The notes: generated by a model from the sequence alone, not told the origin. A stretch of DNA of 64,000 nt from an uncultured Bacteriovoracaceae bacterium (GCA_964622975.1 CAZUTA010000014.1:3267-67266), one strand, 5' to 3'. Positions 27,200 to 45,984 are shown, counted from the stretch's first letter. Translations and numbers: made by a program.

Positions 27200-28345
27200 T
27201 TAAATTTGCCGATGCGGCTGAAACTTTCGAATAAACTTTCCTACCCGATTGATCATTGATTGGACAAAATCTTCATTTGGAAGTTCTCGATAATCCCGCA
27301 GAGGAGTTTTCATAACAGTTTCAAACTCTTCTCTCGAGATTTCTAACTTCTGAAGCACAAAGTCTCTCTCTCTGGCCAAAGCGTCTTCAGGATAAGGGGG
27401 GCGCCCCATCTCATCAAGTGCGCTGTCTCGGGTGATCTGACCTGAGAGAATCAGAGTCGATAGATGGCAGCGACGCTTATCGTATCCAAACTTTTTGGGA
27501 AGATAATAGCCCTGGTGAAATCGAGTATAGACTGATTCAAAATGCTTTCCCCCATAATCTCGCCATCCAAATTCTCTCGTCAAAAAATCCTTAGCCTCGG
27601 CCTTGTTGTAATCAATAAGATTTAAAACACCGTGCTGATACACAGGATGGATCCAACGATAATAAAAATAGCGCTTTAAGATTCCGATAGTTGGATAGCG
27701 GTTGAGCCGTCCTTGACCAAATCGCTTAAACACAGCCCTAAGACTTCGAAGATCCGTACATCTGTGCCCGCGATAGCTTTCAGGCAAAATGGCTTCCGTC
27801 ACAACATTGGTGCCCACAAGAATATGTTGAATTTTAAACTTTGCCGCCGTCGCATAAAGACTTGCAATGATTGAGTGATCCTGAGGTATGTCACAGTTCA
27901 CCATTCCTGATCGCAAGTATGCCACTTGCAGAGACTTCATCTCTTCCCAATCACAAACAAAAGTATGTAGTGGGATATCCAATTTTTCGAGCAATCGCTG
28001 AATATTCCCCACGGCAAGCTCTGAATTCCATCCGCTGTCAAAATGAAATGCCAGCGGTCTCAATCCCCACTTCTTGGCTAAATATGCGACGTATGAAGAA
28101 TCTACGCCACCGCTCACTCCTACGAGACAGTCAAAATCATTCTTTGCACCAGAGCGGCGAACCTTTGTAAGAAGCTCATCGAGTAATTTCTGAGACTTGA
28201 TAGGGTCTGCCAGTCTGCTTGCCGCTGTGTCTCGATACTCGTGGCAATAGTTACAGATCCCTTGAGCATCAAAAACAATCAAAGGATCTGACGTATCCAT
28301 GATACATTTCTGACAAATTTGATAGTGACCCCTCATCGCTCCCAT
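27200..28345 (-). CDS. N-acetyl sugar amidotransferase (WbpG/PseA/WbuX family, PP-loop ATPase)
   Basis: N-terminal Cys-rich zinc ribbon (CQKC...CNYC) and PP-loop GVSGGVDSS. HisH-like and HisF-like genes are in the same operon. Confidence 0.75.
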   Translation of the reverse strand: MGAMRGHYQICQKCIMDTSDPLIVFDAQGICNYCHEYRDTAASRLADPIKSQKLLDELLTKVRRSGAKNDFDCLVGVSGGVDSSYVAYLAKKWGLRPLAFHFDSGWNSELAVGNIQRLLEKLDIPLHTFVCDWEEMKSLQVAYLRSGMVNCDIPQDHSIIASLYATAAKFKIQHILVGTNVVTEAILPESYRGHRCTDLRSLRAVFKRFGQGRLNRYPTIGILKRYFYYRWIHPVYQHGVLNLIDYNKAEAKDFLTREFGWRDYGGKHFESVYTRFHQGYYLPKKFGYDKRRCHLSTLILSGQITRDSALDEMGRPPYPEDALARERDFVLQKLEISREEFETVMKTPLRDYRELPNEDFVQSMINRVGKFIRKFQPHRQI

Positions 28346-28383: not shown

Positions 28384-29643
28384 TCAAGCGCGAAGGCCTG
28401 AGCCGCCGGAAAATTGGTAAGATCTCACTAGATAGTAAATCTGGACTATGGCTGTTGCTATCGAAAATGCCCATAAACATGATTGTGGGCTCGGATCAAT
28501 GGCAAAACCTATAAACAAAGCCAGTGGGGTCAATAACCCATTAAAAATTTGAACGATGAAATCTTCCCTCTGCCTTCGCACCAAATAGAACATGAAAGAC
28601 AAGGGACTCGAGATAAATCTCCAAAAAAACATCAGGCATAGTATCTGAGCGTAGTGTCCCGCCTCAAGCCACTGAGAACCGAAGACTTTGGCAATCAGAA
28701 AGGGTCCCCAGAAATAGAGCAGAGAAAAAAACACCAAACTCAAACTCAAGAGAACCCACAAACTCTGCCTAAACACTCGACGGCATTCACCTGTTTCGTG
28801 AAATGCCGCTGTTGCTCTGGTCCGGAAAACCTCGCCAATAGCCGACGCCAAGAACACTAGTGGCACACCCAAAACTCGCATGGTCAAAGAGTACTGCCCC
28901 ACCACTTCTGTGGTGAGATAATGAGTAAGAAAAAAAACAGGTATCTGAGATACAAAAGTGCTCAAGAGATCTGTCGGAAGCGTAAAAATTGGAAAATGTC
29001 TAAACTCGTGGAGAAGGCGCCAGATCTCCTTGCTCATGGGAAGTCGATACTCGAGTTGAAACTTGCGACGTGCAAAGGCAATCAATCCAATAGCGACAGT
29101 TCCCTGTGCCAGCGCCTGGCTCGATATCAAGCTGAGTCCAGAAGCCGAGAGACAAACTCCCAAACCAATCTGCAGTCCAAGCGTGCCAATGGATACAGCG
29201 ACGCGACTCACTGCTATCGATCGGAATGACCGATTGCGACTCAACCAGAACGTAAGGGCTTCAATCACTCCCGTCGAAAATATTCCTACTGCCAGAAAAG
29301 ATGTCCACTCAGCAGTAGGATTTACGACAACCAAATAGAGGCAGACCCCAATTACCGTCATCAGGCTCAATAGAGAGGTCACCGCAAAACAGATCATCAC
29401 TAATCGCTTTGAATCCACTTCCTCTTTGATCATAAAAATGGATTGACCATAGCGTAAGGTCGCACCAGCTCCCAAAAGACTCACGACAGACGCATAAAGT
29501 GCATATTCACCAAAATCAATGGGGCCATAGATCCTCGTCAGAGTAGGTGACAAAAGGATGTTGAGAAGCTGAGCAAATGTGGTTCCACTTAAAAGTGTAA
29601 CGACGTCCTTTAAAAATGATCTGCTCAAAAAGTTTTTCAACAC
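28384..29643 (-). CDS. Second Wzx-like flippase / MOP-family polysaccharide biosynthesis membrane protein
   Basis: 419 aa with about 12 TM helices. Wzx-type N-terminus LLSPTLTRIYGPIDFGEYALY. Confidence 0.5.
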   Translation of the reverse strand: MLKNFLSRSFLKDVVTLLSGTTFAQLLNILLSPTLTRIYGPIDFGEYALYASVVSLLGAGATLRYGQSIFMIKEEVDSKRLVMICFAVTSLLSLMTVIGVCLYLVVVNPTAEWTSFLAVGIFSTGVIEALTFWLSRNRSFRSIAVSRVAVSIGTLGLQIGLGVCLSASGLSLISSQALAQGTVAIGLIAFARRKFQLEYRLPMSKEIWRLLHEFRHFPIFTLPTDLLSTFVSQIPVFFLTHYLTTEVVGQYSLTMRVLGVPLVFLASAIGEVFRTRATAAFHETGECRRVFRQSLWVLLSLSLVFFSLLYFWGPFLIAKVFGSQWLEAGHYAQILCLMFFWRFISSPLSFMFYLVRRQREDFIVQIFNGLLTPLALFIGFAIDPSPQSCLWAFSIATAIVQIYYLVRSYQFSGGSGLRA

Positions 29644-30392
29644 AAGATCGAGGTGATTTCTTCTGGTTTAGGATAGGTAATCAGGACTGCACGGTATTTT
29701 CCATGGAATACAAAATAGCTTCCTGCCGCCACTGCGGAGGCTCCTGCTCGAGCTGCCGCAGCAAAGTCATCGAGCTTACCCGCACCGCCGTGCGCAATGA
29801 CGGGAACTTTTACCGCCTTAGACACTTCTTCGATCAATCTGATGTCGTAGCCGGCCATTGTTCCCTCTCGATCAACAGAAGTCAGGAGAATCTCTCCGAC
29901 ACCTCGAGACTCTAGCTCTCTTGCAAAATCTATGACGTTTGTGCGCAACTTTTGTTGAGCCCGTTGTCCGCAAACTTCGTACCCCCCTAAAAACTTTTTT
30001 CGAACATCAATAGATCCAATGATCGCTTGAGATCCAAATCGCTTTGCAGCTTCTTCTATGAATTGAGGGACCCTTTCAAAGGCAGCCGTATTCACTGAAA
30101 TTTTCTCAACGCCCAGACTTATGATTCGTTCAATCTGCTTTAGATTCTTAACGCCTCCGCCGTACGCAAGGGGCATAAAACACTGGGATGTCATTTGTTC
30201 CAATAGGCTATAGGAAGGTTCACGATTTTCCACACTGGCAGTCACATCCAAAAAGACGAGTTCATCGACGAACTTCTCATTAAAAATTCGAACCGCATTG
30301 ATGGGGTCGCCAATATAAACTGGATCTTTAAACTGCTTAGTTTTTACCAACCCTTTTCCATCGAGCAATAAAACAGGAATAACTCGAAGCAT
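29637..30392 (-). CDS. Imidazole glycerol phosphate synthase cyclase subunit HisF homologue (WbuZ-like)
   Basis: (beta/alpha)8 HisF signature. LLLDGKG...VFLDVTAS near the N-terminus and VIAHGGAG near the C-terminus. No other his genes nearby. Confidence 0.8.
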   Translation of the reverse strand: MLRVIPVLLLDGKGLVKTKQFKDPVYIGDPINAVRIFNEKFVDELVFLDVTASVENREPSYSLLEQMTSQCFMPLAYGGGVKNLKQIERIISLGVEKISVNTAAFERVPQFIEEAAKRFGSQAIIGSIDVRKKFLGGYEVCGQRAQQKLRTNVIDFARELESRGVGEILLTSVDREGTMAGYDIRLIEEVSKAVKVPVIAHGGAGKLDDFAAAARAGASAVAAGSYFVFHGKYRAVLITYPKPEEITSILC

Positions 30393-31486
30393 TACATCTG
30401 GTTTCCAAATGATCTTACGGCATCAACAACCAGAGTCTGATCGGCTTCACTCAGATACGGATGCATGGGTAAACTCAGGACTTCTTTGGCTGCTCTCTCA
30501 GATTCTTTGAGATGCACTCCAGTATTCGAACCTGCAAACAATGGCTGCTGATGGAGCGGAATGGGATAGTGAATCGCGGTAGGAATACCGAGCTTCTGCA
30601 AATGACCCTGAAGGCGATCCCTCTCGGGATGGCGAATGGTAAACTGTGCCCAAGCCGATAGATTGTGATCTAAAACTATTGGAGTCTTCACGTAGGCATT
30701 GAGCAATTTTGTGTATCGAGACGCTACAACTTGGCGCTTCTGAATTTCGTCTTCAAAGACCTCCATCTTTGAGAGTAAAATCGCTGCTTGAAGTGAATCC
30801 AATCGAGAGTTTGTTCCCATTTGAACATGACGATACCTTTGCTCCTGCCCGTGAGAACGAATCCGTTTGATATTGTCTGCCAGTTTTTTATCCGAGGTCA
30901 ACAACGCGCCCCCATCACCGTAGCATCCCAAGGGCTTGGATGGAAAAAAACTCGTACAGGCAATCGTCGTCATTGAACAACTTCGCCTGCCTTTATACTT
31001 TGCCCCAAAACTCTGAGCAGCATCTTCAATAACTGCCAGCCCCTTTTGCTCCGCTATCTGGTTAATCTCATCGAGGGCAGCCACTTGTCCGTAGAGGGAA
31101 ACGGGTATAATCGCTTTCGTCTTGTTTGTGATGACACTCATAAGTGACTCAGGATCTAGGTTGAAAGTCTGAGTATCAATATCCGCAAAAACGGGAGTGG
31201 CTCCCACTAACAAACAAGCTTCAGCCGTAGCAAAGAAACTAAACGCTGTCGTCACAACTTCATCCCCTGGACCAACACCCAGAGCACGAAGTGCGATCTG
31301 CAGTGCATCTGTCCCATTGGCTACAGTGATTGCGTGCCGAACATTGCAAAAGTCCGCAAGCTGGAGCTCCAACTCCTCGACTTCAGGTCCCAAAATGAAC
31401 TTTGTGTGCTGTAACACTCTCTCCATCCGACGATTGAGACTCTCTCGAATTCGTTCGCGCTGGATATTTAAGTCACAAAACTCCAT
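30392..31486 (-). CDS. DegT/DnrJ/EryC1/StrS family PLP-dependent sugar aminotransferase (WbpE-like)
   Basis: Fold-type I sugar aminotransferase. Segments LGPEVEELE...VANGTDAL and SFFPSKPLGCYGDGGAL (the Lys is the PLP site). Confidence 0.8.
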   Translation of the reverse strand: MEFCDLNIQRERIRESLNRRMERVLQHTKFILGPEVEELELQLADFCNVRHAITVANGTDALQIALRALGVGPGDEVVTTAFSFFATAEACLLVGATPVFADIDTQTFNLDPESLMSVITNKTKAIIPVSLYGQVAALDEINQIAEQKGLAVIEDAAQSFGAKYKGRRSCSMTTIACTSFFPSKPLGCYGDGGALLTSDKKLADNIKRIRSHGQEQRYRHVQMGTNSRLDSLQAAILLSKMEVFEDEIQKRQVVASRYTKLLNAYVKTPIVLDHNLSAWAQFTIRHPERDRLQGHLQKLGIPTAIHYPIPLHQQPLFAGSNTGVHLKESERAAKEVLSLPMHPYLSEADQTLVVDAVRSFGNQM

Positions 31487-31492
31487 AAGATC

Positions 31493-32116
31493 CTATACTC
31501 TCAAAAAACCTTCAAAGAGGCCCATTCCGTAATGATGACTTTTCTCTGGATGAAACTGAACTCCAAAGATGTTGTCCTTTTCTACCGCGGCGGCAAAGCC
31601 CTCTCCATATTTTACTCGTGCCACGACATCTTCATCATTTCTGCACTTCATAAAGTACGAATGCACAAAATAAAACCTCTTCTCTGTTGAGCTCAATCCC
31701 AACACTTCGGAATCCCGCCTCTGCTCAATATAAGCCCAGCCCATATGAGGGATCTTGAGTTGCGAGTCCGCTGAGAGCAGTTTCGAAAAATGAAGTACCT
31801 CGGCGTCAATCCATCCCAAACCCTTTAGATCACCCTCATCGCTTCGTTTACCTAGGAGCTGAAATCCAACGCAAATACCAAGAAGCGGACTCCGCTCCTT
31901 TAATACCTTGGCTTCTAAGGCGGGAATTAACCCAGAATGATCGAGTTGAGCTCGCGCATGATCAAAGGCACCGACCCCCGGTAGAATGAATTTTTTGCCG
32001 GCATTGACCTCCTCGGGCGTCCGAGCCAATACAGCTGTTCCGCCAACCCGCTTGATCATATTGGAAATGGCTCCTAAATTGCCCACTCCGTAATCAATGA
32101 TCGTGATTTCAGTCAC
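31493..32116 (-). CDS. Glutamine amidotransferase HisH homologue (WbuY-like)
   Basis: Class I GATase. GICVGFQLL (catalytic Cys) and the HPE motif near the C-terminus. Confidence 0.8.
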   Translation of the reverse strand: MTEITIIDYGVGNLGAISNMIKRVGGTAVLARTPEEVNAGKKFILPGVGAFDHARAQLDHSGLIPALEAKVLKERSPLLGICVGFQLLGKRSDEGDLKGLGWIDAEVLHFSKLLSADSQLKIPHMGWAYIEQRRDSEVLGLSSTEKRFYFVHSYFMKCRNDEDVVARVKYGEGFAAAVEKDNIFGVQFHPEKSHHYGMGLFEGFLRV

Positions 32117-32121: not shown

Positions 32122-33318
32122 TTAAACCTCAGACATAATTTCTTTGGAAGCGACTCCGGTAGATGTGGCGGCTGACTCGGTCAAAGATTCTCCCCAGCAG
32201 GAACGAATGACCATTAACGCGTTACAAATAGCCTCTTCAGATTCTGTGCCAACGCCGACCCGAACAAAGTGATCTGTGCTTTCCCCATACGCACTCCCTG
32301 GGACGACAGCAATTTGATGTTCCTCCAAAAGCCATTCTGCAAATTCGAGAGAAGTCTTTTGAGATTTGCTAATGTCGACAAAAAAATAAAACGTTGAAGC
32401 CCCCGCCAAGTACTTGAGCCCAATGGAGTCCATATACTTCGCAATTCGATCACGCTTAAGAACAACATCTCTCACCTGAGGAAGAGTTGCTGCGAGAATC
32501 TGATCAAAATAGTTTTCACAGTATTGTAAGAGTATTGTCGGCGCACACGTAATGAGATGCTGATTGAGCTTCAGAAGCGGAAAAATTGTCTCTTCATTTG
32601 CAATGATATAACCAATCCGCCATCCAGACATTCCCATATTCTTAGAGAGGGAATTTACAACAATAATGTTTTTGAGATCCTTGCGGAGTCGAACAGCTGA
32701 ATAGAACTCATTGCGAATACAAAAGTCCGAATAAGCTTCATCCACAACCAGATAGGCACCACGCTTTAGACAAAGGTCATGAATGATACGAAGGTCTTCT
32801 TCTGTGTAGACACTCCCCGCTGGATTATTAGGATTATTGAGAATCACCAGCTTTGTTCGGTCAGTGAAATAGTTTTCAAAATCTCGAGCCTTTGCCCAAT
32901 AAGGCACTGCCTTTGGAACTCCACGGCAGAGCTTGATTTGCTCGGGATAACTGACCCAGTAGGGTTCAGGTACCAGAGCTTCATCTCCAGGATTGAGTAT
33001 CGCCAAAGACGTCATATAGAGGAGAATTTTAGAACCAGCAGATATGACGAGATTCTTGGATGGATCAAAAGGCGCTTGATAATGAGTCGCGTAAAAATTT
33101 GCAATTCGTTCTCTCAGTTGAGGGAGTCCTCGAGTGTCTGAGTAATGATAGCCTTTGACAAAATCGAGCTTCGAAAAGTCAAACTGGGGTATATCAAAGA
33201 AAGCTTCACCCAGTGACAATACGGTCACGTCAATTCCCAGACGCCTCTTATCGTAGACCATCTGATTGATCCGAATTGAGCCTGCCTCTACTACATTACG
33301 CGCGACATCACTAAGCAT
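32122..33318 (-). CDS. Class I/II PLP-dependent aminotransferase (AspAT-like fold)
   Basis: NPNNPAGSVY...LVVDEAYSDF...SLSKNMGMSGWRIGY, a typical class-I aminotransferase Lys region. Confidence 0.7.
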   Translation of the reverse strand: MLSDVARNVVEAGSIRINQMVYDKRRLGIDVTVLSLGEAFFDIPQFDFSKLDFVKGYHYSDTRGLPQLRERIANFYATHYQAPFDPSKNLVISAGSKILLYMTSLAILNPGDEALVPEPYWVSYPEQIKLCRGVPKAVPYWAKARDFENYFTDRTKLVILNNPNNPAGSVYTEEDLRIIHDLCLKRGAYLVVDEAYSDFCIRNEFYSAVRLRKDLKNIIVVNSLSKNMGMSGWRIGYIIANEETIFPLLKLNQHLITCAPTILLQYCENYFDQILAATLPQVRDVVLKRDRIAKYMDSIGLKYLAGASTFYFFVDISKSQKTSLEFAEWLLEEHQIAVVPGSAYGESTDHFVRVGVGTESEEAICNALMVIRSCWGESLTESAATSTGVASKEIMSEV

Positions 33319-33571
33319 GCTTTCCCCCCCTGCTCTTCAAAAACTCAAAAATCTTTCTGGCACTGGAGAGATCTGATGCCTCTAAGGACTCCAAATCAAT
33401 TCGAACACCGTGGCGATCTTCCATGTCGGAAATCATCTCGATAAAACAGACTGAATCGATCAATCCTGCCTTAAAGAGTTCTGAGTCTTCAGAGACTTCG
33501 CTCCTCACCGCTTCAGGAATATAAGACTTCACTAGTCCGAGTACGTCCTGTGGAGAGCTCAGTCCCATCAA
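33311..33571 (-). CDS. Acyl carrier protein
   Basis: 86 aa, acidic, with GLIDSVCFIEMI (DS is the phosphopantetheine site). Confidence 0.6.
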   Translation of the reverse strand: MMGLSSPQDVLGLVKSYIPEAVRSEVSEDSELFKAGLIDSVCFIEMISDMEDRHGVRIDLESLEASDLSSARKIFEFLKSRGGKHA

Positions 33572-35100
33572 AAAGTCTCCAGCTCGTTTCGAAGTGCCGC
33601 ATCCAAAGCTTTTGACTGAAGCGCCTTTCGATCAGGTTTCCCGCTATGCGTTAGAGGCATGCCATCGACATACATCAAAAACGAAGGCCACTTATATCGT
33701 GCCAGCTTCTCAGCCAAATGACGCCGCATGGAGAGTCCCGCTGCTTTCTCGCGAGAAGGGACACAGACAGTAACACATTCTCCATAAAGAGGGTGGCTCA
33801 TTCCGACACTCATGGCCCCAATAAACTGAGGAACCTCTTCCAATGCACGATCGATCTCATCGAGGGAAATCAGATACCCCCCCTTTTTGATAATATTTTT
33901 GGTTCGTCCTTTATAAACAAGACGATCCCCTGAAACCTCAATGATATCCCCGGTTCCCCAATAGGTATCGAGATCAAAAACTTTCTCTCTCGTCATTCCG
34001 ATCTCGTCTTCTACAACCTCTCCTTCAGCAAGAAACGGCGTCTTTATCTCAAGCTCCCCTGTCTCCGGCTTTACGTGCGCATTCACCCACGGCAGCACTT
34101 CTCCGATACTTGCTTCAATTCGTTTAAATCTTGTGTTGAGAGTCTCTGAAGAAATAAAAGTGGTCTCGGACAGTCCGTAGTTTTCAAGAAGAGAAAAACC
34201 AAGTCGTCTTTCATACTCCACCTTCTCTGAAGTACGGATCGGGCCCATTCCCAAAAAGCCAGCTCGAATAGACTTGGCCAGATCTAAGGGACATATTTCA
34301 TCGGTGCTTTTGGCCATTTTGGCAAGTCCATGAAGGACTGTCGGAGAAAACCAAAGAACATTGATTCCAAACCTTCGGACTGTCGTCCAAAACTTCATCA
34401 ATGAAATGCCTGTAAAACCCTCACCTAAGACGCTGCTCGCACCTACTGAATATGGAATCAATGTGAGATTAAATGTCCCAGCCAAATATGACATTGGATA
34501 AAAATTAAAAAATCTGCAGTTCTCATCAAGAAACTGATGGTGAGAAGAAAAGCTTACCGCAGACGTCCACAAGCGATCCATGGAGATGCGAATGATCTTT
34601 GGCAGACCAGTACTCCCACTGGTAGCAATCAAGAGCTTTCCCGCCTTAAGTCCCTTCTCGCAACTTGTTCCAAGAGAACTTGAAAGGTCTTCCAGATTCA
34701 AACGTATGATTTTTGTCCCAGAGGGAACTTCTTGTACGAACTCATGATCTTTCTGACGATCTTCAAGGCAGAGTAGGGCACTTGGCTTGAGAAGTCGAAA
34801 TGCACGCTGAAGCTCAGACTTAGTACTCTGACATGAAAGCGGCAGGTATTGATGACCAGACCGAGTGACTCCAATAAAGCAAATGACACTCAATGGTCCG
34901 CCAGGAATGAGCGAGGCGACTACATCGCCCGGCTTGAGGCCTTGAGCTCTCAAGATCTCTGCAAGCCCTAGGCTCTTCTTCCTCAGGTCTCCAAATTTAG
35001 TCTCTTCATTCGTGTTCGAATCAACCAAAGCGACTCGGTTGACATAAAGAGTCTCAATTCGCTCAAAATCTTCCGCAAAGTTTTTGAGGTTTGAATTCAT
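33568..35100 (-). CDS. AMP-dependent synthetase/ligase (acyl-AMP/acyl-ACP ligase-like)
   Basis: LLIATSGSTGLPK adenylation motif A3 and the ...TGD... motif. Confidence 0.75.
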   Translation of the reverse strand: MNSNLKNFAEDFERIETLYVNRVALVDSNTNEETKFGDLRKKSLGLAEILRAQGLKPGDVVASLIPGGPLSVICFIGVTRSGHQYLPLSCQSTKSELQRAFRLLKPSALLCLEDRQKDHEFVQEVPSGTKIIRLNLEDLSSSLGTSCEKGLKAGKLLIATSGSTGLPKIIRISMDRLWTSAVSFSSHHQFLDENCRFFNFYPMSYLAGTFNLTLIPYSVGASSVLGEGFTGISLMKFWTTVRRFGINVLWFSPTVLHGLAKMAKSTDEICPLDLAKSIRAGFLGMGPIRTSEKVEYERRLGFSLLENYGLSETTFISSETLNTRFKRIEASIGEVLPWVNAHVKPETGELEIKTPFLAEGEVVEDEIGMTREKVFDLDTYWGTGDIIEVSGDRLVYKGRTKNIIKKGGYLISLDEIDRALEEVPQFIGAMSVGMSHPLYGECVTVCVPSREKAAGLSMRRHLAEKLARYKWPSFLMYVDGMPLTHSGKPDRKALQSKALDAALRNELETF

Positions 35101-36110
35101 AAGACAAACCGTCCTTGCTCTAAAAGTTTAGTGCCATCCACAGAAATTGTTGGCGCCCGAAAAATAAAATCTAAGTGAAATGAAACGACATTCTTTCCAC
35201 CGACCGTGGAATTGGATCCAAATCCACAATGAGCAGTTCCGGCAGCTCCCTCATCAGTGAGCATGATCCCTTGCAACTGAGCATTGTCATTAAACCCAAT
35301 GCCAAGCTCTGCGAGAATCTTCGTTTTCTTTGGATCCTGCATCCGAAACAAAGTCTCTAGACGACCAACGAGTTCAAGATTGTCTGAGGATATGTCTACG
35401 ATCAACCCGTCTTCAATTTTAAGTGTCACCGGAGACTTCAGCAACCCAAAGCCCGGATAGGGAATCGAACCGTCTACAACAAGAATTCCATTGCTTCCAT
35501 CTTCAAGCGGCGAAACATTGGCTTCAATATCTGGCGGTGATCCCAAGTCACCCGCCTTTTCTACAAAACCCGGACAATAATTTCCCACTCGGTCAGAAAT
35601 TGAAATCTCCAAATTGGTCCCCAAAGAAGTCGTTACGTGAATCAGATTCCCTCGAGTAAACAGATCAGCAGTTTTTCGAACGCGATCACTGACACCTCGG
35701 TAATCCGTCAAAAGACAGCGGTCTTGAAGCAGTTCAATTGAATACTCAGGCAGGCTCAAAAAACGCGCGCCAATCTCGCAGGCCGCAATCCGAGCTCGAG
35801 TATGAGCCATCGACTTGGAAGCCATTCCCAAAATCAACGAAGACTCTTTCATGAGATTCAATGTCTCGTCCGGCGGCTCTTCGCCATGCATTCTCGGAAT
35901 CGGAACATGAGACGTCTGAATCATCAGTCCAGAGTCTCTCGCAATTCGAACCACCGCTTGAGCCGCATCGGCCGAGACATCATCGTAAATGATGAGTATG
36001 CTCTCCGAGGCTTTGGCATTGCCGCAGATTTTCAAGAGGCTTAAAACACCAGATCGAAGCGCCTGCGTGTCAGATTTCGGCTGTACGCTAGATTGTATTG
36101 TTTGTGTCAC
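35097..36110 (-). CDS. M29 (aminopeptidase T/AmpS)-like family protein
   Basis: C-terminal EGAAGTAHCGFGSNSTVGGKNVVSFHLDFIF matches the M29 metal-ligand region (E...H...H-x-D). Confidence 0.45.
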   Translation of the reverse strand: MTQTIQSSVQPKSDTQALRSGVLSLLKICGNAKASESILIIYDDVSADAAQAVVRIARDSGLMIQTSHVPIPRMHGEEPPDETLNLMKESSLILGMASKSMAHTRARIAACEIGARFLSLPEYSIELLQDRCLLTDYRGVSDRVRKTADLFTRGNLIHVTTSLGTNLEISISDRVGNYCPGFVEKAGDLGSPPDIEANVSPLEDGSNGILVVDGSIPYPGFGLLKSPVTLKIEDGLIVDISSDNLELVGRLETLFRMQDPKKTKILAELGIGFNDNAQLQGIMLTDEGAAGTAHCGFGSNSTVGGKNVVSFHLDFIFRAPTISVDGTKLLEQGRFVL

Positions 36111-36163
36111 AGCAAACCCCCGTTTATAAATTAACCAACAATGACCTGAGCTGTCGACGAAAC

Positions 36164-37093
36164 TTAAGTCGACAACCCAAAGTCCTTAGGAAGCTGCTGA
36201 GAAGGCTTTGCAACGAGCTTCGCGTGCGGTGGAACATCCTTCACAACGATGGCCCCAATTCCCAAATGCGCTTCTTCTGATAACCGAATTCCGTTGGATA
36301 AGACCGCCGAAGGGCCAATCCACGCATTCTTATCGATGATAGTACTCCCACTGATCGTGACATTGCCTGCGATCAAAGCAGACTCTCCAATATCGCAATT
36401 ATGACCAATGTTGACGAGCGCCCCTATCTTAGTGCCTTTGCGGATAATCGTGGCCCCTAATGTTCCCCGATCGACAACGGAGTTAGCTCCGATCTCTACC
36501 TCTTCTTCTACAATCACCCGCCCAACATGGAGAAATCCTTCGATACCTCCTGTATCATTACGAGAAAAACCAAATCCACTCGAACCCAGCACTACTCCGG
36601 ACTCAATTCGAGCATGACTTCCTATCTCGACACCATCACCCACCGTCACTCGAGACACCAATACCGCTCCCTTTCCAATATGCGCCTTTCCGATTACACA
36701 TCCTGGACCAATAAATGCCGCGGGATGAACGGAGGCATCCTTAGAAACAATGGCACTGGGATCAATGCCCGGAATAACTTTATCAGCAAAAAATGATCTT
36801 AGAATTCTCATAAATGTCAGCCGAGGTTGTGCGCTTCGGATCACCAATCGCGAACCAAAATTACCCGTTGCCCCCTCAGCACAAATAACAACCTTGGCTT
36901 TGGTTGATGACATTAAATCGGATGCATTCTTGAGATGGGGCGAAATCCACGTCATTGAATTCTCATCGGCCTCCGTTGGACTTTTTGCAGAGCTCAACTT
37001 CCATGGCCCTCCACTCCCCTCCACGGTCTCTCCGAGAGTAAGAACTTTTTGCAACTCGACCTCATCAATCACTACGTCACGGGAATTGTTCAT
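36164..37093 (-). CDS. LpxD-like left-handed beta-helix N-acyltransferase (UDP-3-O-acyl-glucosamine N-acyltransferase family)
   Basis: N-terminal LpxD-type domain, then hexapeptide repeats with the IGHNCDIGE catalytic His region. Confidence 0.65.
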   Translation of the reverse strand: MNNSRDVVIDEVELQKVLTLGETVEGSGGPWKLSSAKSPTEADENSMTWISPHLKNASDLMSSTKAKVVICAEGATGNFGSRLVIRSAQPRLTFMRILRSFFADKVIPGIDPSAIVSKDASVHPAAFIGPGCVIGKAHIGKGAVLVSRVTVGDGVEIGSHARIESGVVLGSSGFGFSRNDTGGIEGFLHVGRVIVEEEVEIGANSVVDRGTLGATIIRKGTKIGALVNIGHNCDIGESALIAGNVTISGSTIIDKNAWIGPSAVLSNGIRLSEEAHLGIGAIVVKDVPPHAKLVAKPSQQLPKDFGLST

Positions 37094-37863
37094 CGTTCAC
37101 TCAAGCTCCTCACTTTTTGAATGCGACCATAATCCCAAGTCTTTGACTCAAATCTATAGGGCTGCAAATTTCTCTCTAACTCTTTGTCGAGAAACAATTT
37201 TCGCTCCTCAAGAAAAAGGTTGAGTTTCTGAACGGGAGTCCGAAACTCAGAATCCCACCAAATCGGATGGATCAAAAGCTGAATGGCCCTCTTCTGCTTG
37301 AAGGCCTCATGATCGGCCGGGTAGCCCCCAGGCCAACGCTCCAGTGAATCCGACAAATATGTCGCCTCCAAAAAAAACCGCGGGGCATAAGTGTGTACAC
37401 GATTCTTAAGTTCAACATCAGCACCTAAGAGTTCCCGTACTGGCCGATGAAAGCTCACAGAATGCACGGGCGCACCGCAATAGTGCTCAAGCGTTTCACA
37501 TTCGCTATCGATCGCTCGAGACAGGCGCTCCAATTGCAAATGCGGATAAAGCTCCACATCAAAATGCAACCCAATCTGATGCCCCAAATGAAGAATCTCT
37601 TTCAGAATCTGTAGCGCGCTCAAGCTTCCCAAATTGTAAAATTCAGTTCTCAGTAAAAAAAAGTACGTCGATTTTACTTCGAGCGAGGCCTCCAACCTCG
37701 CCATTTCGAGCGCCCTCTCCAAAGAAACATCCACATCGTGTCTCAGAGCAAGATGCTGCTTCTTGGGATCAAACTCCAAAAAGTTTACATCTTGATAGCC
37801 TTGATTCTTAAAGGCCTTCAGAAGCTCAACATAACTGGCATAAGTAAAGGGAGCCAAACTCAT
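37090..37863 (-). CDS. Hypothetical protein, possible CE4-like deacetylase fold
   Basis: LALRHDVDVS...KSTYFFL resembles NodB motif 1/2. Weak call. Confidence 0.3.
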   Translation of the reverse strand: MSLAPFTYASYVELLKAFKNQGYQDVNFLEFDPKKQHLALRHDVDVSLERALEMARLEASLEVKSTYFFLLRTEFYNLGSLSALQILKEILHLGHQIGLHFDVELYPHLQLERLSRAIDSECETLEHYCGAPVHSVSFHRPVRELLGADVELKNRVHTYAPRFFLEATYLSDSLERWPGGYPADHEAFKQKRAIQLLIHPIWWDSEFRTPVQKLNLFLEERKLFLDKELERNLQPYRFESKTWDYGRIQKVRSLSER

Positions 37864-37903: not shown

Positions 37904-38527
37904 TTAATGTCGAGAAAGGTCGATCTCACGAGCGGGAACACCCAAAGCCGTGCGGCCAGCCCGAATATTCTTAACAATTACACTTCCAGCGCCAATGGTC
38001 GCCCATTCGCCTATGTCCATAAAAGGCTTTGCTTTTGAGCCGACTCCAAGGAGCGATCCCTCGCCAACCTTCACACCTCCCGATAAGACACAACCCGGAG
38101 CGATATGCGCAAAATCAGCAATCTGGCAGTCATGATCAATCGACGCCGAAGTGTTGATAATACAGTGCTCTCCAATCACAACATCTGGCTGAATTACAAC
38201 TCCTGCAAATACGACAGTTCCTCTTCCGATTTTGACACTTGAATGAACAATGGAAGAAGGATGACAGACAGTGAGCCAATTGAGATCGAGCTGGCGGGAG
38301 ACATCCCTTCGTCGTTGATTGTCCCCAATTGCATTGATAGCAAAACAATTCTTAAACTCCGCGCTACGACTGACAGGTCCCATCACTTTGATTCCCAGAA
38401 TTTGTGACCCCCACTTTTCGGGGTTATCATCGAAAGCTGCTGCCACATTAAATCCAGCCGCTTCAAGAGTCGCAATCACAACTTTTGCATGGCCCCCTGC
38501 GCCCACGATGATGACTTCTTTAGACAT
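37904..38527 (-). CDS. PglD/NeuD-family sugar N-acetyltransferase (hexapeptide)
   Basis: Rossmann-like N-domain (IIVGAGGHAKVV) followed by a left-handed beta-helix. Adjacent to PglC-like and PglE-like genes. Confidence 0.75.
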   Translation of the reverse strand: MSKEVIIVGAGGHAKVVIATLEAAGFNVAAAFDDNPEKWGSQILGIKVMGPVSRSAEFKNCFAINAIGDNQRRRDVSRQLDLNWLTVCHPSSIVHSSVKIGRGTVVFAGVVIQPDVVIGEHCIINTSASIDHDCQIADFAHIAPGCVLSGGVKVGEGSLLGVGSKAKPFMDIGEWATIGAGSVIVKNIRAGRTALGVPAREIDLSRH

Positions 38528-39143
38528 GGAACTTACCTCGAACTTCTAGCAGAGAAGGCATCGTCACTTGTCCAGCACTCATGATTCCGTCACGCTTCAA
38601 TACTTTTAGAACAGTGAGCAAAACAATTTTCAGATCGAGGGACAAAGACCAATTTTCAACATACCAAACATCAAAACTGAGTCGTTCATCCCAAGTCACA
38701 GAATTGCGACCATTGACTTGAGCCCAACCCGTAATCCCCGGACGAACCAAGTGTCGCTTGCTCTCCACTTCTGTATACAATGGTAGATACTCGGGAAGAA
38801 GAGGGCGCGGTCCCACTAAACTCATCTCTCCCTTCATCACGTTCCAGAGTTGCGGAAGCTCATCAAGACTGGTCGCTCTCAAAAATCTGCCCCAACTCGT
38901 CATCCGTAAATGATCAGGCAACAGATTCCCTTGTTTGTCCCGTCGGTTATCCATGGTTCTGAGTTTGCACAAATTAAAAATTCTTCCACCAAGTCCGGGC
39001 CGTCTCTGAAAAAAGAAAGGATTGCCTCTAAAACTCAAAGCACTAATCCCTAATGCCAATGCAATCACTGGCAGTGCAAAGACTGCCAAAGCCGATCCCA
39101 GAACCAAATCAAACCCTCGTTTAAGGCTTAGAGATAAACTCAT
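38520..39143 (-). CDS. Monotopic phosphoglycosyl transferase (PglC/WbaP C-terminal 'bacterial sugar transferase' family), initiating enzyme
   Basis: N-terminal re-entrant helix, then RPGLGG, DELPQL and SLVGPRP motifs. Confidence 0.8.
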
Positions 39144-40288
39144 GATCGAAGTCGTGCTCGAAGCCCCTGAATGACACGCTCCTGATCTTCGGCACTCATC
39201 AAAGTCCCCGAAGGCAAGACAACTCCAGTCTCAAAAAGTTGGTCCGAAACACTTTCGGACGACGAAGCTGTATAGTACCGACAATTTTTGAACAAGGGTT
39301 GTCGATGCATGGGTTTCCAAACGCGCCTCGCTTCTATGTCGAGATCAGCCAGCGCAGTGATTATTGCCGCAGGCTTTTTAGTACTGTCCATTGGAAGAGT
39401 CATCACACTGAGCCACCGACTAGAAAACCCTCCCTGAATCTCGGGCATCCACTTCAGATCGCCATTTTCTCTAAATGCTTCCTCGTAAACCGAAAAAATC
39501 TCACGACGTCGCTGCACTCGCTTATCCAATACTTCAAGCTGCCCTCGCCCCAAAGCAGCCAGTAAATTACTCATTCGGTAGTTATATCCTACTTCGCAAT
39601 GCTCATAGTGTGGCACCGGCTCTCTCGACTGTGTTGACCAGAATCTGATTCTTTCAGCGGTCTGACTATCTCGCGCAATCAACGCCCCCCCACCTGATGT
39701 CGTAATGATCTTGTTCCCGTTAAACGAAAGAATCGCAAGGTCACCAAAATTGCCAGATTTTTTGCCGGCATAAGAAGCACCCAATGACTCAGCGGCATCT
39801 TCGAGAATCGCGATTCCATTTTCACGGCAGATTTCTATGAGCTCATTGTAATTTGCACTTTGACCGTAGAGATTTACAATGACTGCAATTCGGGGTCGTA
39901 TTCCCTCTTTTTTAAGTTCCCCCAAAGCTCGTTTAAGAGCTTGAGGACTCATATTCCAAGTTTCAAAATCAGAATCTACAAAAACAGGTGTCGCGCCCTC
40001 GTACAAAATAGGATTCGTACTTCCGACAAATGTGAGGGACGAACAAAGTACATGATCTCCTCGCTGCACACCCAGCGCCTTGAGTGCCAAATGGATCGCT
40101 GCGGTCCCCGAACTCAGAGCTACAACCTCATGGGCGCCAATGTAGGCAGCGAGTTCCTTTTCGAATGCATTGACCTGAGGTCCGAGCGTCGTAATCCAAT
40201 TGCTCTCAAGCGCTTGAATCAAATAGTCCCGCTCCTTGCCCGAAAGATGTGGTGCCGAAAGATAAACTCGTTTGCCCAGATGACTCAA
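39140..40288 (-). CDS. DegT-family sugar aminotransferase (PglE-like)
   Basis: APHLSGKERDYLIQALESNW and the SFNGNKIITTSGGGAL Lys region. Probable TTG start at 40288 preceded by AGGAAGAGG. The ORF is open to 40387, overlapping the upstream gene. Confidence 0.8.
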   Translation of the reverse strand: MSHLGKRVYLSAPHLSGKERDYLIQALESNWITTLGPQVNAFEKELAAYIGAHEVVALSSGTAAIHLALKALGVQRGDHVLCSSLTFVGSTNPILYEGATPVFVDSDFETWNMSPQALKRALGELKKEGIRPRIAVIVNLYGQSANYNELIEICRENGIAILEDAAESLGASYAGKKSGNFGDLAILSFNGNKIITTSGGGALIARDSQTAERIRFWSTQSREPVPHYEHCEVGYNYRMSNLLAALGRGQLEVLDKRVQRRREIFSVYEEAFRENGDLKWMPEIQGGFSSRWLSVMTLPMDSTKKPAAIITALADLDIEARRVWKPMHRQPLFKNCRYYTASSSESVSDQLFETGVVLPSGTLMSAEDQERVIQGLRARLRS

Positions 40289-40310
40289 GCAATACCTCTT
40301 CCTTTGCCGT

Positions 40311-43034
40311 CTATTTAAACGCAGCGATTGTAATGCCCGTTGTTGTCGCAATCTGAAAAATAATCTCTGTAATGTCTTTAGTCGCACTCAACCAAGAAAA
40401 GCGCGTGATATCTTTTGGAACAAAGATTGAGTCCCCTCTTTCGACTTCAACGCTATAAAAATTTCTCAGCAAGAATCCTCGGTTCTGTTGGCGCGAAATA
40501 ACAGAACCATCGGCCCGAATCAAAAAAATGCTTTCTTTATCTCCATTAGATGTGGGCCCACCGGCTTTCTCTAAATAGTACTGAATTGTTTTCCCCGGCA
40601 AAAAAATCATAGCCGTGGGCGTGTAGACTTCTCCCATCACATTGACAGAAGAAGGCGTCGCGGGAATATCAATCAAATCTCCCCCTTCCAGAGGTATATC
40701 AAATCTATTCCCTACGAATGTATTGAGTTCCGAAAAATTTACGACCATGCGGCCAGACGCTTTTACATTTCGCATGTTTTCGAGCAATGCGTTTCGGCTC
40801 GCCGCTGCCGCCATTGTCGCCGCTCGATCCTCCGAGCTCTGAAACTTCAAAGTCGGATTGACGTCCTCTTGCAAAATGGCTGCTTCAAGTCGATCAACCT
40901 GTTCCTTTAGCCCTTTTTGCTGCATTGCCTGCACGGCCTTTCGCGTAAACACCGCTCCCGGCAAAAACGCTCGGGGGGTGTATCCTCCTGCACGCTTAAT
41001 GATTGCGCTAATGCGCTCCCCAGGCACGAACGAATAAGTGCCAGGAAACTTTACTTCTCCAAGGACCTGTACCGTATTGTTGATCTCGAAGTTTTGAACT
41101 CCTTGAATGAGAATCTTATCTCGAGGCATCAACTCAGGATTGTTGAGGGGTGGAGATGAAATCACTTCTTTTAAATTCACCTGAAGGCGCTCAACCTTAA
41201 AGTCGTCTCCCACTTCAGAATACCGAGCAATTTCTGCAGTCGCTAAATTGGCATCACGAGTTAAATTGCCAGCCATATACAATAAGTCTCGAAGCTTCAT
41301 CCCCTGAAAATAATAATAGGCTCCTGGCTTATTCACTCGCCCAGCAATGGACACTCTCTCTCGAAGATCGAGCTCCGCTTTGCTAAAGACCACCACCTCA
41401 TCTCGTTCCAAAAGCTCGAGGTTTTCGGATGCATCTCCATTCAAGAGATTCTCCAAATTGACAAACAAGGATTGCTTTTCATCGCGGGGAGGAACGGTTC
41501 TTAAAATTTGAATATATTTTGTGTATGGTTCGGGCAGCAAAATCTCAAAATTTGGAATCACTTCCAAAACTTTCAGCCCCGGTCGCCATTCAAAGGCTCC
41601 AGGCCTGCGAACATGCCCACGCAAAAATACCGTCTTTCGAATTTCTGAGAGAACGGGGAATATTTTGACAATATCACCATCAATCAGTCTCTCTCTAAGG
41701 TCACCCTTCATAGCTTCTTCAAAAGTCAAATTTTGAACATTGGGAGGGAGGACAAAATCCTTTGTGACTCGCTCTTTATTCTGTTGGACGCGCTCCAAAG
41801 ACAAACGGCCCGCATACCCAGAAAACGAAAGTCCTCCACTCAACTGCAAAATATCAAATAGATTCGTATCCTCAGTAAGTTCATAGATTGCAGGGCGCCG
41901 GACTCCTCCCGTCACAGCTGCCACATCGCGGAGGACAGGAATCAAAATGACATCGTGGGGCTGCAAATCAATGGAGGCTGTTTGGCCTTTCGTCAGAAAA
42001 TTATAAAGATCGACTTTATGAGCGGTTTTATTGGCTCGAACAATTTCGAGTCGTCGCAAGCTTCCAGATTTTTTTACCCCACCCGCCTGAACAAGTGCAT
42101 TTACAATTCCAGCAGTCGCAGGAACGAAGTACATTCCCGGAGTTTCCACTTCACCGACGACATAAAGTGGAATGTTGCGCGCTGTTTCCAAACTCAGGCG
42201 CATCTTGATCCCGTTATAAGAAGAATTGAGTCTCTTTAGGACTACATCTCCGGCATCTTTAAGAGTTTTGCCCGCAACCTTAATGGCTCCGACTCGGGGC
42301 AGAAACACTGTGCCATCTTTTTTAACGCTCAAATAAACCGAAAAACTGTTGGAGCCCCAAGCCACAAGATAAAGTTCATCGCCTGGCCCGACAATGTAAT
42401 CAGGGCCAGCGGGGGCCTCAGCAAAAAAGTTCCTCGCCTGCTCCTGACGATCGTCTGAGTCCTCTGTAGTTCGAGGGAGAAAGGCTTCGTATCCAAACTG
42501 TTTAAAGTCTCTAAACAATTCGAGAGGAAACTTGCCAAGGAGAACCTCTTCAACTTTTGATAACTTTTGAGAAGCGGGCTTTTCAAACAGATCCCCATCC
42601 TCAAATTCTTCACTCTCTACCAAATTGGTGGGTCGCTCTTTGGGAGTTTGAGCGGCCTCTGGCAAAATAGGGTCTAAGACTCCTTCGTCTCTGTACTGTT
42701 GCTTGAGTAAATCGGCATCTCGCACAAGCTCAGTCGCTTCATCACGAATCTTCAACTCTTCTGACAGATCTCGCTTCTCACCTTGCAAGGAGGCCTTGTC
42801 TTGTCTCGCCCGATTTTTTTTCTCTTTTACTAGAACTTGTCCCTTGCGCTTTGATTCATAGGGCCCATTCGGTCCAAGAGCATTCGCTGCTCCAGAGGCA
42901 TCTCGCTGCACTGTCTCTGAAGATGTCCCTGAATTGGAATGAATATTTGAAGGTTCTGACTGAGCAAAAACGCTCAGTCCTGGCAAAAGTAAGCTGAGAA
43001 ACAACCCCCTAAAGAACATAGCAAAGGCTATCAC
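40311..43034 (-). CDS. Outer-membrane polysaccharide export (OPX, Wza/KpsD-like) protein with Poly_export plus multiple SLBB domains
   Basis: Signal peptide, PDYIVGPGDELYL Poly_export motif, repeated beta-grasp SLBB-like segments, 907 aa. Confidence 0.65.
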   Translation of the reverse strand: MIAFAMFFRGLFLSLLLPGLSVFAQSEPSNIHSNSGTSSETVQRDASGAANALGPNGPYESKRKGQVLVKEKKNRARQDKASLQGEKRDLSEELKIRDEATELVRDADLLKQQYRDEGVLDPILPEAAQTPKERPTNLVESEEFEDGDLFEKPASQKLSKVEEVLLGKFPLELFRDFKQFGYEAFLPRTTEDSDDRQEQARNFFAEAPAGPDYIVGPGDELYLVAWGSNSFSVYLSVKKDGTVFLPRVGAIKVAGKTLKDAGDVVLKRLNSSYNGIKMRLSLETARNIPLYVVGEVETPGMYFVPATAGIVNALVQAGGVKKSGSLRRLEIVRANKTAHKVDLYNFLTKGQTASIDLQPHDVILIPVLRDVAAVTGGVRRPAIYELTEDTNLFDILQLSGGLSFSGYAGRLSLERVQQNKERVTKDFVLPPNVQNLTFEEAMKGDLRERLIDGDIVKIFPVLSEIRKTVFLRGHVRRPGAFEWRPGLKVLEVIPNFEILLPEPYTKYIQILRTVPPRDEKQSLFVNLENLLNGDASENLELLERDEVVVFSKAELDLRERVSIAGRVNKPGAYYYFQGMKLRDLLYMAGNLTRDANLATAEIARYSEVGDDFKVERLQVNLKEVISSPPLNNPELMPRDKILIQGVQNFEINNTVQVLGEVKFPGTYSFVPGERISAIIKRAGGYTPRAFLPGAVFTRKAVQAMQQKGLKEQVDRLEAAILQEDVNPTLKFQSSEDRAATMAAAASRNALLENMRNVKASGRMVVNFSELNTFVGNRFDIPLEGGDLIDIPATPSSVNVMGEVYTPTAMIFLPGKTIQYYLEKAGGPTSNGDKESIFLIRADGSVISRQQNRGFLLRNFYSVEVERGDSIFVPKDITRFSWLSATKDITEIIFQIATTTGITIAAFK

Positions 43035-45105: not shown

Positions 45106-45984
45106 ATGTTAGATCAACGGCGGAAAATTCTACTCTTGGGATCGACTGGACAGGTAGGCCATGAGCTTAAACGCCTCCTCACACCGCTCGCAGAACTGAC
45201 CGCAATGACTCGATCTGATTTCCATCATGAGTCTCCCGATGAAGTTGAAAGAGTCTTAACCAGCCTCAGGCCGGACATCATCATTAATGCAGCGGCTTAT
45301 ACGCAAGTAGAACAGGCCGAGATTGATCCCCATTCTGCAACGCAAATGAATACAATATTGCCAGAATGCTTGGCCGCATTTTGCCGCCGTCGATCAAGTC
45401 TTCTTGTTCACTATTCCACAGACTATGTTTTCGACGGTTCTAAAAATTCTCCCTACTTGGAGTCCGATCAGACCAATCCACTCAACGTCTATGGCAAGAC
45501 AAAATTGGAGGGAGAAGTAAGGATAGTCAATTCTGGTTGTCGTGCGATCACCTTACGAACGAGCTCTGTATTTTTAAATCGCGGTCGCAACTTTGTGCTT
45601 ACGATTCTGAAACTCGCTGGCACTAAAGACGAAATACCCGTGGTTTCTGACCAAACAATGTGTCCGACGAGCGCTTCCCAAATCGCACAAGCGACTTGCG
45701 AAATTCTCAATCGGGATTCTCCGCCGTTAAACGGAATCTTTCACGTGACCTCGCCAGATACTGCAACTTGGTTTGAATTTGCCGAGGAGATTTTAAAACA
45801 AGCAGCGCCGTATTTGAAAAATATCCCCAAAGTCAGAGCGATCATGACATCTCAGTATCCCTCAAACCTCAAACGCCCACTCTATACTGTTTTAAGTTCT
45901 GAAAGGATAAAGAGAGAGTTCAATATCAAACTCCCTTCCTGGAAACTTCAGTTAAGTAAGGTAATCGGAGAGATCTTCCAATGA
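45106..45984 (+). CDS. rmlD: dTDP-4-dehydrorhamnose reductase
   Basis: KILLLGSTGQVGHEL motif plus RmlD length and overall architecture. Confidence 0.85.
   Translation: MLDQRRKILLLGSTGQVGHELKRLLTPLAELTAMTRSDFHHESPDEVERVLTSLRPDIIINAAAYTQVEQAEIDPHSATQMNTILPECLAAFCRRRSSLLVHYSTDYVFDGSKNSPYLESDQTNPLNVYGKTKLEGEVRIVNSGCRAITLRTSSVFLNRGRNFVLTILKLAGTKDEIPVVSDQTMCPTSASQIAQATCEILNRDSPPLNGIFHVTSPDTATWFEFAEEILKQAAPYLKNIPKVRAIMTSQYPSNLKRPLYTVLSSERIKREFNIKLPSWKLQLSKVIGEIFQ

Follow-up and report, generated by a model that had tools for sequence, protein, structure and literature searches.

The O-antigen cluster of Vibrio cholerae O1 includes a sub-cluster, the tetronate genes wbeK-O (VC0248-VC0252), which builds an acyl group and N-acylates perosamine (PMC3441752). 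Here we describe a module of six genes (positions 32122-37863, minus strand) in a 64,000-nt stretch of DNA (hereafter the window) from an uncultured Bacteriovoracaceae bacterium (GCA_964622975.1 CAZUTA010000014.1:3267-67266), which we consider, with a probability of roughly 55%, to be a dedicated carrier-dependent system that attaches an acyl group other than acetyl to an amino sugar in a polysaccharide repeat unit. Its genes encode a CE4-fold protein, an LpxD-like protein, an M29-aminopeptidase-like metalloprotein, an adenylate-forming ligase, a stand-alone carrier protein and an aspartate aminotransferase (AspAT)-type aminotransferase. The likeness to V. cholerae O1 would lie in an acyl-building sub-cluster combined with N-acylation of a 4-amino sugar, and WbeL of V. 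cholerae is an ATP-binding ligase-like protein (PMC3441752). The two differ in that the product of the V. cholerae pathway, which is itself largely assigned by homology, is a hydroxy acid and is not aminated. The wbe set also comprises an acyl carrier protein (ACP) plus a hexapeptide acyltransferase, together with alcohol-dehydrogenase and LuxC/LuxE-like reductases, and it is not known to contain an AspAT-type aminotransferase or an M29-like protein.

For the Wbp/Vim pathway, known from Porphyromonas gingivalis and Tannerella forsythia, it has been proposed that the CE4 enzyme VimE first strips a UDP-diacetamido sugar of its C-2 N-acetyl group and that VimA then attaches serine or glycine to the amine so exposed (PMC7468200). 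The module would share this logic of acetyl out and amino-acyl in, but VimA is a GNAT/FemAB-like enzyme, and a carrier, a ligase, an aminotransferase and an M29-like protein are undescribed for Wbp/Vim. LpxC and LpxD likewise combine deacetylation of a UDP-N-acetyl sugar with carrier-dependent N-acylation by a beta-helix enzyme that has a uridine-binding N-terminal domain, whereas the candidate deacetylase of the module has a CE4 fold, unlike LpxC, and a dedicated carrier replaces AcpP. In butirosin biosynthesis (BtrI/J/K/O/V/H/G), an amino-acyl chain is assembled on a stand-alone carrier with the help of a pyridoxal phosphate (PLP) enzyme and moved to the amine of an amino sugar, after which a peptidase-type enzyme removes a protecting residue; macrolactam pathways also deprotect. 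Loading in butirosin biosynthesis relies on an ATP-grasp enzyme and not on a ligase of the ANL superfamily, a decarboxylase serves as the PLP enzyme, an aminoglycoside is the acceptor and, to our knowledge, there is no sequence relationship to the M29-like protein. Neighbours of TIGR03098 in exosortase-A/PEP-CTERM exopolysaccharide (EPS) loci form an uncharacterised set of ligase, ACP, PLP-decarboxylase and alpha/beta-fold hydrolases. The window ligase matches TIGR03098 weakly (79.5 bits, cut-off 592), and several EPS genes of the PEP-CTERM type occur in the window, where no exosortase was detected. Finally, the Dlt system consists of DltA, DltC and the membrane proteins DltB and DltD, whereas no DltB- or DltD-like gene is annotated in the window, and the Dlt models score far below their cut-offs on the module (DltC, 27.7 against 68; DltA, 92.9 against 476). 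Our literature searches returned no published description of the cassette, in line with an initial annotation of the window that knew of no characterised pathway with this combination: the core of M29-like protein, ligase, aminotransferase and carrier is absent from the literature found, and the kind of system is already known.

The six open reading frames (ORFs) called in that annotation were all confirmed on the minus strand. Their transcription order is CE4-fold putative N-deacetylase (37090..37863, 257 aa), LpxD-like left-handed beta-helix N-acyltransferase (36164..37093, 309 aa), M29-like metalloprotein (35097..36110, 337 aa), adenylate-forming ligase (33568..35100, 510 aa), stand-alone carrier (33311..33571, 85-86 aa) and AspAT-type class I PLP aminotransferase (32122..33318, 398 aa), so that the CE4-like ORF, previously placed after the others, is in fact transcribed before them. 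All six belong to one co-directional minus-strand run extending from 44978 down to 26071. Translational coupling had been claimed for the five genes other than the CE4-like ORF; among all six, four of the five junctions overlap by 1-8 nt in coordinates and sequence: 4 nt between the CE4-like and LpxD-like genes, 4 nt between the M29-like and ligase genes, 4 nt between the ligase and carrier genes with a TTG start (1 nt if the ATG one codon downstream is the start), and 8 nt between the carrier and aminotransferase genes. The LpxD-like and M29-like genes are separated by a 53-nt gap and are therefore uncoupled.

With a profile built on the M29-like family, 45 distinct loci were recovered from genomes, spread over at least 14 phyla as named by the records and including Elusimicrobia, Omnitrophota, Pelagibacter, Rhodospirillaceae, Legionella, Coxiellaceae, Prochlorococcus, Melainabacteria, Planctomycetota, Actinomycetota, Myxococcota and Clostridia. 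In about 40 of the 45, the M29-like, ligase and aminotransferase genes follow each other in the same order, and since this order recurs in so many independent loci, the grouping is far beyond chance; the combination is thus not confined to this genome, a point that the initial annotation had missed. When presence was counted with cluster hidden Markov models (HMMs) over 51 rows, which include the window and two duplicates and in which several absences fall at contig ends, the ligase was present in 49, the aminotransferase in 47 and the carrier in 45. The aminotransferase is the most conserved core component, its relatives in the related loci being 44-58% identical to that of the window across phyla. 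Natural fusions join the same components: ligase-aminotransferase proteins of 903-918 aa occur in five loci (L003, L017, L019, L022 and L023, three of which are closely similar marine alphaproteobacterial assemblies), and library representatives include an M29-ligase (P0380), a 1224-aa ligase-aminotransferase-M29 (P0374) and an M29-carrier protein (P0378). Taken together, conserved synteny and fusions suggest that the four core components behave as one enzymatic unit around a carrier-bound intermediate.

Most of the loci lie in a nonulosonic-acid (legionaminic or pseudaminic) or bacillosamine-type context, with NeuB, NeuC, NeuA-like, DegT and short-chain dehydrogenase/reductase genes; a self-contained six-gene version is found in Paenibacillus durus, and the same set lies within a complete legionaminic-acid locus of Clostridium kluyveri. 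The transferase beside the core varies. An AAC(3)/Antibiotic_NAT-like protein lies close to the core in 25 of the 51 rows, GNAT-like proteins (c34, c40 and GNAT21) adjoin it elsewhere, and the LpxD-like gene stands directly beside the M29-like gene in the window and in two further loci (L023 and L038); in Firmicutes, a 340-aa protein without a Pfam match (c58) is beside the core. The LpxD-like protein is therefore one of several interchangeable transferases, which had previously escaped notice. An amidohydrolase is often adjacent as well, either a DUF4910/DUF2172 protein (22 rows), which we take to be peptidase-like, or a CE4 deacetylase (10 rows), and a SAM (S-adenosylmethionine) methyltransferase gene often lies downstream of the aminotransferase gene (20 rows). 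In an Elusimicrobia locus (L001, 15555-17411), the AAC(3)-like and DUF4910/DUF2172 proteins are fused in a single 618-aa chain, and their genes are neighbours in about 20 loci (L006-L046); this fusion and adjacency suggest that the transferase and the hydrolase act as a pair. Such a recurring pair of hydrolase and N-acyltransferase beside an acyl-carrier unit would fit, by analogy with LpxC followed by LpxD and with Wbp/Vim, a swap of the N-acetyl group derived from UDP-GlcNAc for another acyl group.

The M29 likeness of the 337-aa core protein, proposed in the initial annotation, is not recovered by a plain HMM scan, which found no Pfam or NCBIfam match in our local libraries, PF02073 included, even at E<=10. 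It emerges from structure and from family-level comparison. The AlphaFold2 (AF2) model (pLDDT 94) has NicX as its top Foldseek match (TM 0.8 at 19% identity), followed by the M29 aminopeptidases PepS, AmpS and AmpT (TM 0.5-0.7), and the family profile aligns to both M29 and NicX proteins; a precomputed Pfam assignment, PF26233 'NicX', is attached to the protein, and some homologues carry a precomputed PF02073 match. It is about 75 aa shorter than the M29 aminopeptidases, whose full-length architecture is about 400 aa. Five residues, E196, E268, H294, H312 and D314, are invariant among 30 homologues, and in the profile alignment four of them (E196, E268, H312 and D314) correspond to PepS E253, E319, H381 and D383. 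We take the five metal ligands of M29 enzymes to be Glu253, Glu319, His348, His381 and Asp383, and H294, judging from its position, would be equivalent to His348. The mononuclear Fe(II) site of NicX presumably consists of His265, Ser302, His318 and Asp320, a numbering that agrees with the alignment; the positions of H265 and S302 are occupied in the M29-like family by Glu and Gly, so that only the His/Asp pair is common. A NicX-type dioxygenase function was rejected, two of the four Fe ligands being replaced and the M29 ligand set kept. With the M29 ligands aligned and invariant and the NicX-specific ones replaced, the protein looks like a dinuclear metallohydrolase rather than a ring-cleaving dioxygenase.

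The family is large (1117 homologues), and members of the core are annotated at source variously as 'aminopeptidase', '2,5-dihydroxypyridine dioxygenase' or 'hypothetical protein'; a plasmid search with the M29-like protein returned only paralogues of about 30% identity annotated 'aminopeptidase'. One representative, P0391 (702 aa), fuses an HMGL-like domain, of the 2-oxo-acid aldolase/synthase family, to an M29-like part that is 41% identical to the window protein. It may represent a separate branch of the family with different chemistry; no HMGL-like gene is present in the window or in the fetched loci, and its hint of 2-oxo-acid chemistry was not used here.

Among the remaining core components, the aminotransferase matches PF00155 (E 3e-62, 211 bits), as had been expected, and aligns over its full length with the Thermotoga AspAT 1o4s. 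It keeps the PLP lysine (SKN), the carboxylate arginine (FVRV) and the NPNNP and DEAY motifs, and thus has the PLP lysine, the PLP-holding Asp, Tyr and Asn residues and the carboxylate arginine that define the class I AspAT group. It falls under every NCBIfam equivalog cut-off, so that no specific substrate can be assigned to it. The carrier, likewise of the family first proposed, reaches 23.6 bits with the PP-binding model (PF00550; cut-off 20.8), and its length and predicted phosphopantetheine serine, in GLIDSV, are those of a carrier protein, typically a four-helix protein of roughly 80 aa; it scores 67 bits against a carrier profile that was built from the related loci together with its own sequence. 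The ligase has an AMP-binding domain (PF00501, E 3e-37), again in agreement with the first assignment, followed by AMP-binding_C (PF13193), and its ANL motifs A3, A5, A7, A8 and A10 are readable as TSGSTGLPK, NYGLSET, GTGD, GRTKNIIKKGG and PLTHSGK. It too lies under the cut-off of every specific NCBIfam family. Its best PDB matches are malonyl-CoA synthetase (4fuq), oxalate-CoA ligase and adenylation (A) domains of non-ribosomal peptide synthetases (NRPSs), and inspection by eye of its A4 region (FNFYPMSYLAG) shows no Asp or Glu.

These components bear directly on the nature of the acyl group. A serious rival to the proposal developed below, although one that we judge unlikely, is a Dlt-like route in which an unusual free alpha-amino acid, produced by the aminotransferase, is loaded through its alpha-carboxyl group by the ligase, as DltA does onto DltC, and transferred by the LpxD-like protein, and in which the M29-like protein edits mis-acylated products or takes off a protecting residue, as in butirosin and macrolactam biosynthesis. 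The top NCBIfam and PDB matches of the carrier are indeed D-alanyl carrier proteins (DltC) and peptidyl carrier proteins, the ligase matches NRPS A domains and DltA, and the retained M29 ligand set would fit cleavage beside a free alpha-amine. Against this route, the ligase has no acidic residue at the A4 position that we take to be the one binding the alpha-amino group of the substrate in GrsA and DltA (Asp235-type); in addition, with the ligase fused to the aminotransferase in some proteins and the M29-like part to the carrier in another, the chemistry would seem to take place on the carrier and not to consist in providing a free amino acid. A keto or dicarboxylic acid, attached by one carboxyl group and aminated beside the other to give a Glu- or Asp-like distal linkage, is weakly favoured instead, on the grounds of the alpha-carboxylate arginine of the aminotransferase, the missing alpha-amino-binding acidic residue of the ligase, its marginally best match to malonate and oxalate ligases and the methyltransferases that follow the aminotransferase gene.

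The LpxD-like protein passes NF002060 (228.8 bits, cut-off 207) and carries a PF04613 N-terminal domain at residues 34-99 that is weak (E 1.3e-4, under the gathering score), but does not reach the lpxD equivalog TIGR01853 (182.5 against 242.5); its assignment to the LpxD family in the initial annotation thus holds at the level of the family and not of the equivalog. Its best PDB matches are LpxDs, and the histidine of its VNIGHN motif aligns with that of QIAHQ in Chlamydia LpxD (2iu8), presumably the catalytic histidine. With 309 aa, against 341-374 aa in solved LpxDs, it ends about 20 aa past the beta-helix. No fabZ, lpxA or lpxB is found near its gene, whose neighbours are polysaccharide genes and the ligase/carrier/aminotransferase core. 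A canonical lipid A or fatty-acid origin was ruled out by score, C-terminal truncation and gene context, as had been anticipated. Its adjacency to the core in three loci, its retained histidine and its weak uridine-binding domain support a functional link to the core, as a predicted N-acyltransferase.

The simplest prediction of the initial annotation was a lipidated, amphiphilic polysaccharide; on such a reading the ligase would load a medium- or long-chain or 3-hydroxy fatty acid with which the LpxD-like protein would N-acylate the sugar. Consistently with this prediction, the closest solved relatives of the acyltransferase are LpxDs, which use 3-hydroxyacyl-ACP, the NF002060 score is above cut-off, and the ligase also matches long-chain fatty-acid CoA ligase families (E 1e-33 to 1e-35). 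The rest of the evidence points away from it and makes it distinctly improbable: no ketosynthase, reductase or dehydratase gene for chain building was found with the module, the carrier resembles D-alanyl and peptidyl carriers, the best solved matches of the ligase are malonyl-CoA and oxalate-CoA ligases and NRPS A domains, and the acyltransferase is both below the equivalog cut-off and truncated at its C-terminus. Moreover, in most loci the transferase that accompanies this core is AAC(3)-like or GNAT-like, and the invariably linked aminotransferase and M29-like protein would be left without a role. Since chain-building genes are missing, the carrier is of the aminoacyl type and these two enzymes would otherwise have nothing to do, a small polar acyl group with an amine has more support than a long fatty chain, and the second reading offered in the initial annotation, an amino-acyl or amine-modified acyl group, fits the evidence best. 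Less probable still is a third alternative, in which the M29-like hydrolase sets free a small molecule that the core has built on the carrier as a scaffold, the transferases are ordinary acetyl-CoA-dependent N-acetyltransferases and the glycan bears no new acyl group; it is in keeping with a hydrolase that is obligatory in the core and sometimes fused to the carrier, with an LpxD-like protein devoid of an ACP-docking extension and with the need of these loci for N-acetyltransferases in any case, but the core sits mostly inside glycan loci, the window already has PglD- and WbpD-like acetyltransferases, the extra transferase adjoins the core (in many loci next to the carrier gene) and a deacetylase partner makes sense only if acetyl is replaced.

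The 257-aa CE4-like protein has no Pfam (including PF01522) or PDB sequence match, and none of the 120 homologues listed, among 599, has a precomputed Pfam domain. Its AF2 model (pLDDT 94) has CE4 deacetylases, including ArnD, as its top 24 PDB folds (probability 1.0, TM 0.36-0.59). In the family, RHDVD, H100, D102, S137-H139-R140 and H199 are invariant and H95 is nearly so; by eye, the invariant RHDVD, H100, HRP and H199, together with H95, resemble the CE4 motifs (Asp-Asp, His-His, Arg-Pro and Leu-x-His). Its membership of the module is uncertain, because no homologue was detected in L023 and L038, the other two loci with an LpxD-like gene, and because the homologue found in L017 lies between DegT and PglD. 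An identical PglC/PglD/CE4-like/LpxD-like stretch is present on a 7-kb contig (JACCDN011006586.1, GCA_013558295.1; L050).

From the observed family and fold assignments, retained catalytic residues, synteny and fusions, we infer an order of steps, a class of acid, a reaction for the M29-like protein and an acceptor for the preferred pathway, the carrier-dependent N-acylation of a repeat-unit amino sugar. In this pathway, the ligase would adenylate a small carboxylic acid, more likely a keto or dicarboxylic acid than an alpha-amino or fatty acid, and load it as a thioester on the 85-aa carrier. The aminotransferase would add, or would earlier have added, an amino group next to the free carboxylate, with glutamate as the probable donor, and the M29-like metallohydrolase would act on the carrier-bound intermediate, for example by trimming, deprotection or cyclisation. 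The LpxD-like beta-helix enzyme would then move the finished acyl group from the carrier to the amine of a UDP-linked sugar. The CE4-fold protein may free a second amine by de-N-acetylation, mirroring the succession of LpxC and LpxD or of VimE and VimA. The idea of a dedicated sugar N-acylation module using a carrier protein, already put forward in the initial annotation, is supported.

The most likely acceptor would be the amine installed by the adjacent DegT aminotransferase, the second in the run (30392-31486), on a sugar that would also receive an acetamidino group from WbuX, HisH and HisF. The DegT gene belongs to a group of downstream genes, all on the minus strand and assigned with NCBIfam and Pfam, that are likely functional partners of the module: HisH/WbuY (31493-32116), HisF/WbuZ (29637-30392), a Wzx flippase (28384-29643), the WbuX amidotransferase (27200-28345) and a GT4 glycosyltransferase (26071-27198). 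The choice of the DegT amine rests on the Myxococcaceae locus L023, in which the core recurs together with an LpxD-like gene 40% identical to that of the window and with homologues of the GT4, HisF, HisH, second DegT and WbuX proteins, and on L038, in which a DegT homologue directly follows the carrier gene. This sharing in L023 also indicates that the functional block probably continues downstream, covering 37093 (or 37863) to 26071, an extension that the initial annotation had missed. The module here, unlike most of the related loci, has no tie to nonulosonic acid, since neither NeuB nor NeuC is encoded in the window. Upstream, on the same strand and in the same operon, lie genes for a PglD/NeuD acetyltransferase (37904-38527), a PglC-type phosphoglycosyltransferase (38520-39143), a PglE/LegC-like aminotransferase (39140-40387), a Wza/OtnA-like exporter (40311-43034) and a PglF/WbpM-like dehydratase (43044-44978).

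Several points weigh against this pathway. The role of every member is predicted from sequence and structural models. Judged from its sequence, the LpxD-like protein stops without the C-terminal helical extension which, in true LpxD, we take to dock ACP, so that it could use an acyl-CoA instead, and the CE4-like gene was not detected in the two other LpxD-like loci. The ligase matches dicarboxylate ligases only marginally better than NRPS domains (E 2e-25 against 3e-22). A hydrolase is an awkward member of the core of an acyl-donor pathway and could release a free product instead. The window offers three candidate acceptor amines, those due to PglE, to DegT and to a VimE-like deacetylase (21710-23068). 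Lastly, the flagellin of Clostridium botulinum carries N-methyl-glutamyl legionaminic acid, but a link to it was unsupported: among the top 120 proteins of a search with a Firmicutes profile were those of Cohnella, Paenibacillus durus and Clostridium kluyveri and none from C. botulinum, and the papers examined on Clostridium flagellar loci do not refer to core-type genes.

The window contains further polysaccharide genes outside the block. The VimE-like CE4 deacetylase (21710-23068, plus strand) scores 156.7 bits with NF053580, under the cut-off, and the same region encodes a WbpB-like oxidoreductase, a WbpD-like acetyltransferase, an asparagine-synthase-like amidotransferase (TIGR03108, 578 bits, under the cut-off) and an XrtA-type polysaccharide deacetylase (13111-14741, plus strand; 4820-6847 and 7461-8381, minus strand). 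Together they resemble a pathway of the Wbp/Vim type that would yield an N-modified 2,3-diamino uronic acid or uronamide; a VimA/FemAB-like transferase was not detected in the window, and the amine freed by the VimE-like enzyme is therefore another possible acceptor of the acyl module.

At the border of the polysaccharide region lies a split transketolase pair (N- and C-terminal halves as separate genes, 1750-2664 and 2668-3531, minus strand), an arrangement also met in sugar-modification clusters. A SAM methyltransferase and a CsaB-type pyruvyl transferase, fused in one 687-aa protein, adjoin a coenzyme F420 hydrogenase beta-like protein (16905-18968 and 18953-20329, minus strand), which suggests a pyruvylated, methylated sugar in the same polymer, and a C-methyltransferase with a Methyltransf_13 zinc-binding domain and a Methyltransf_14 C-terminal domain (10682-11986, plus strand) points to a sugar with a C-methyl branch. 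A divergent GT4 gene splits the rml genes (rmlD-rmlC, 45106-46535, plus strand; GT4, 46518-47705, minus strand; rmlB-rmlA, 47777-49851, plus strand), whose presence indicates that the polymer also draws on dTDP-rhamnose, or a derivative of it, as a precursor. At 907 aa, the Wza/OtnA-like exporter is unusually long, its best match being a PEP-CTERM export model, and a sigma-54 response regulator (58995-60377, plus strand) resembles the PEP-CTERM-box regulator (430 bits, cut-off 503).

N-acyl groups carried by amino sugars and by nonulosonic acids influence serotype, phage receptors and recognition by the immune system, and genes are known for only a minority of the non-acetyl groups. The cassette described here is a concrete candidate gene set for one such decoration, present in abundant marine bacteria and in relatives of Legionella and Clostridium. 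Beyond the window, we tentatively suggest, as something short of probable, that the quartet represents a very widespread pathway (SAR11, Prochlorococcus, Legionella, Clostridia, Elusimicrobia and others) that would place aminated acyl groups on nonulosonic acids and bacillosamine-type sugars, with a new reaction of an M29-fold protein on a carrier-bound intermediate and interchangeable deacetylase/transferase pairs that swap out acetyl. If true, this would give a first function to a large M29/NicX-fold family (293 representatives at E<=1e-30) and would make LpxD-, AAC(3)- and GNAT-type enzymes alternative outlets of one acyl-carrier pathway. For the bacterium of the window, the prediction is a repeat unit whose diamino sugar would bear both an acetamidino group and a novel acyl group.

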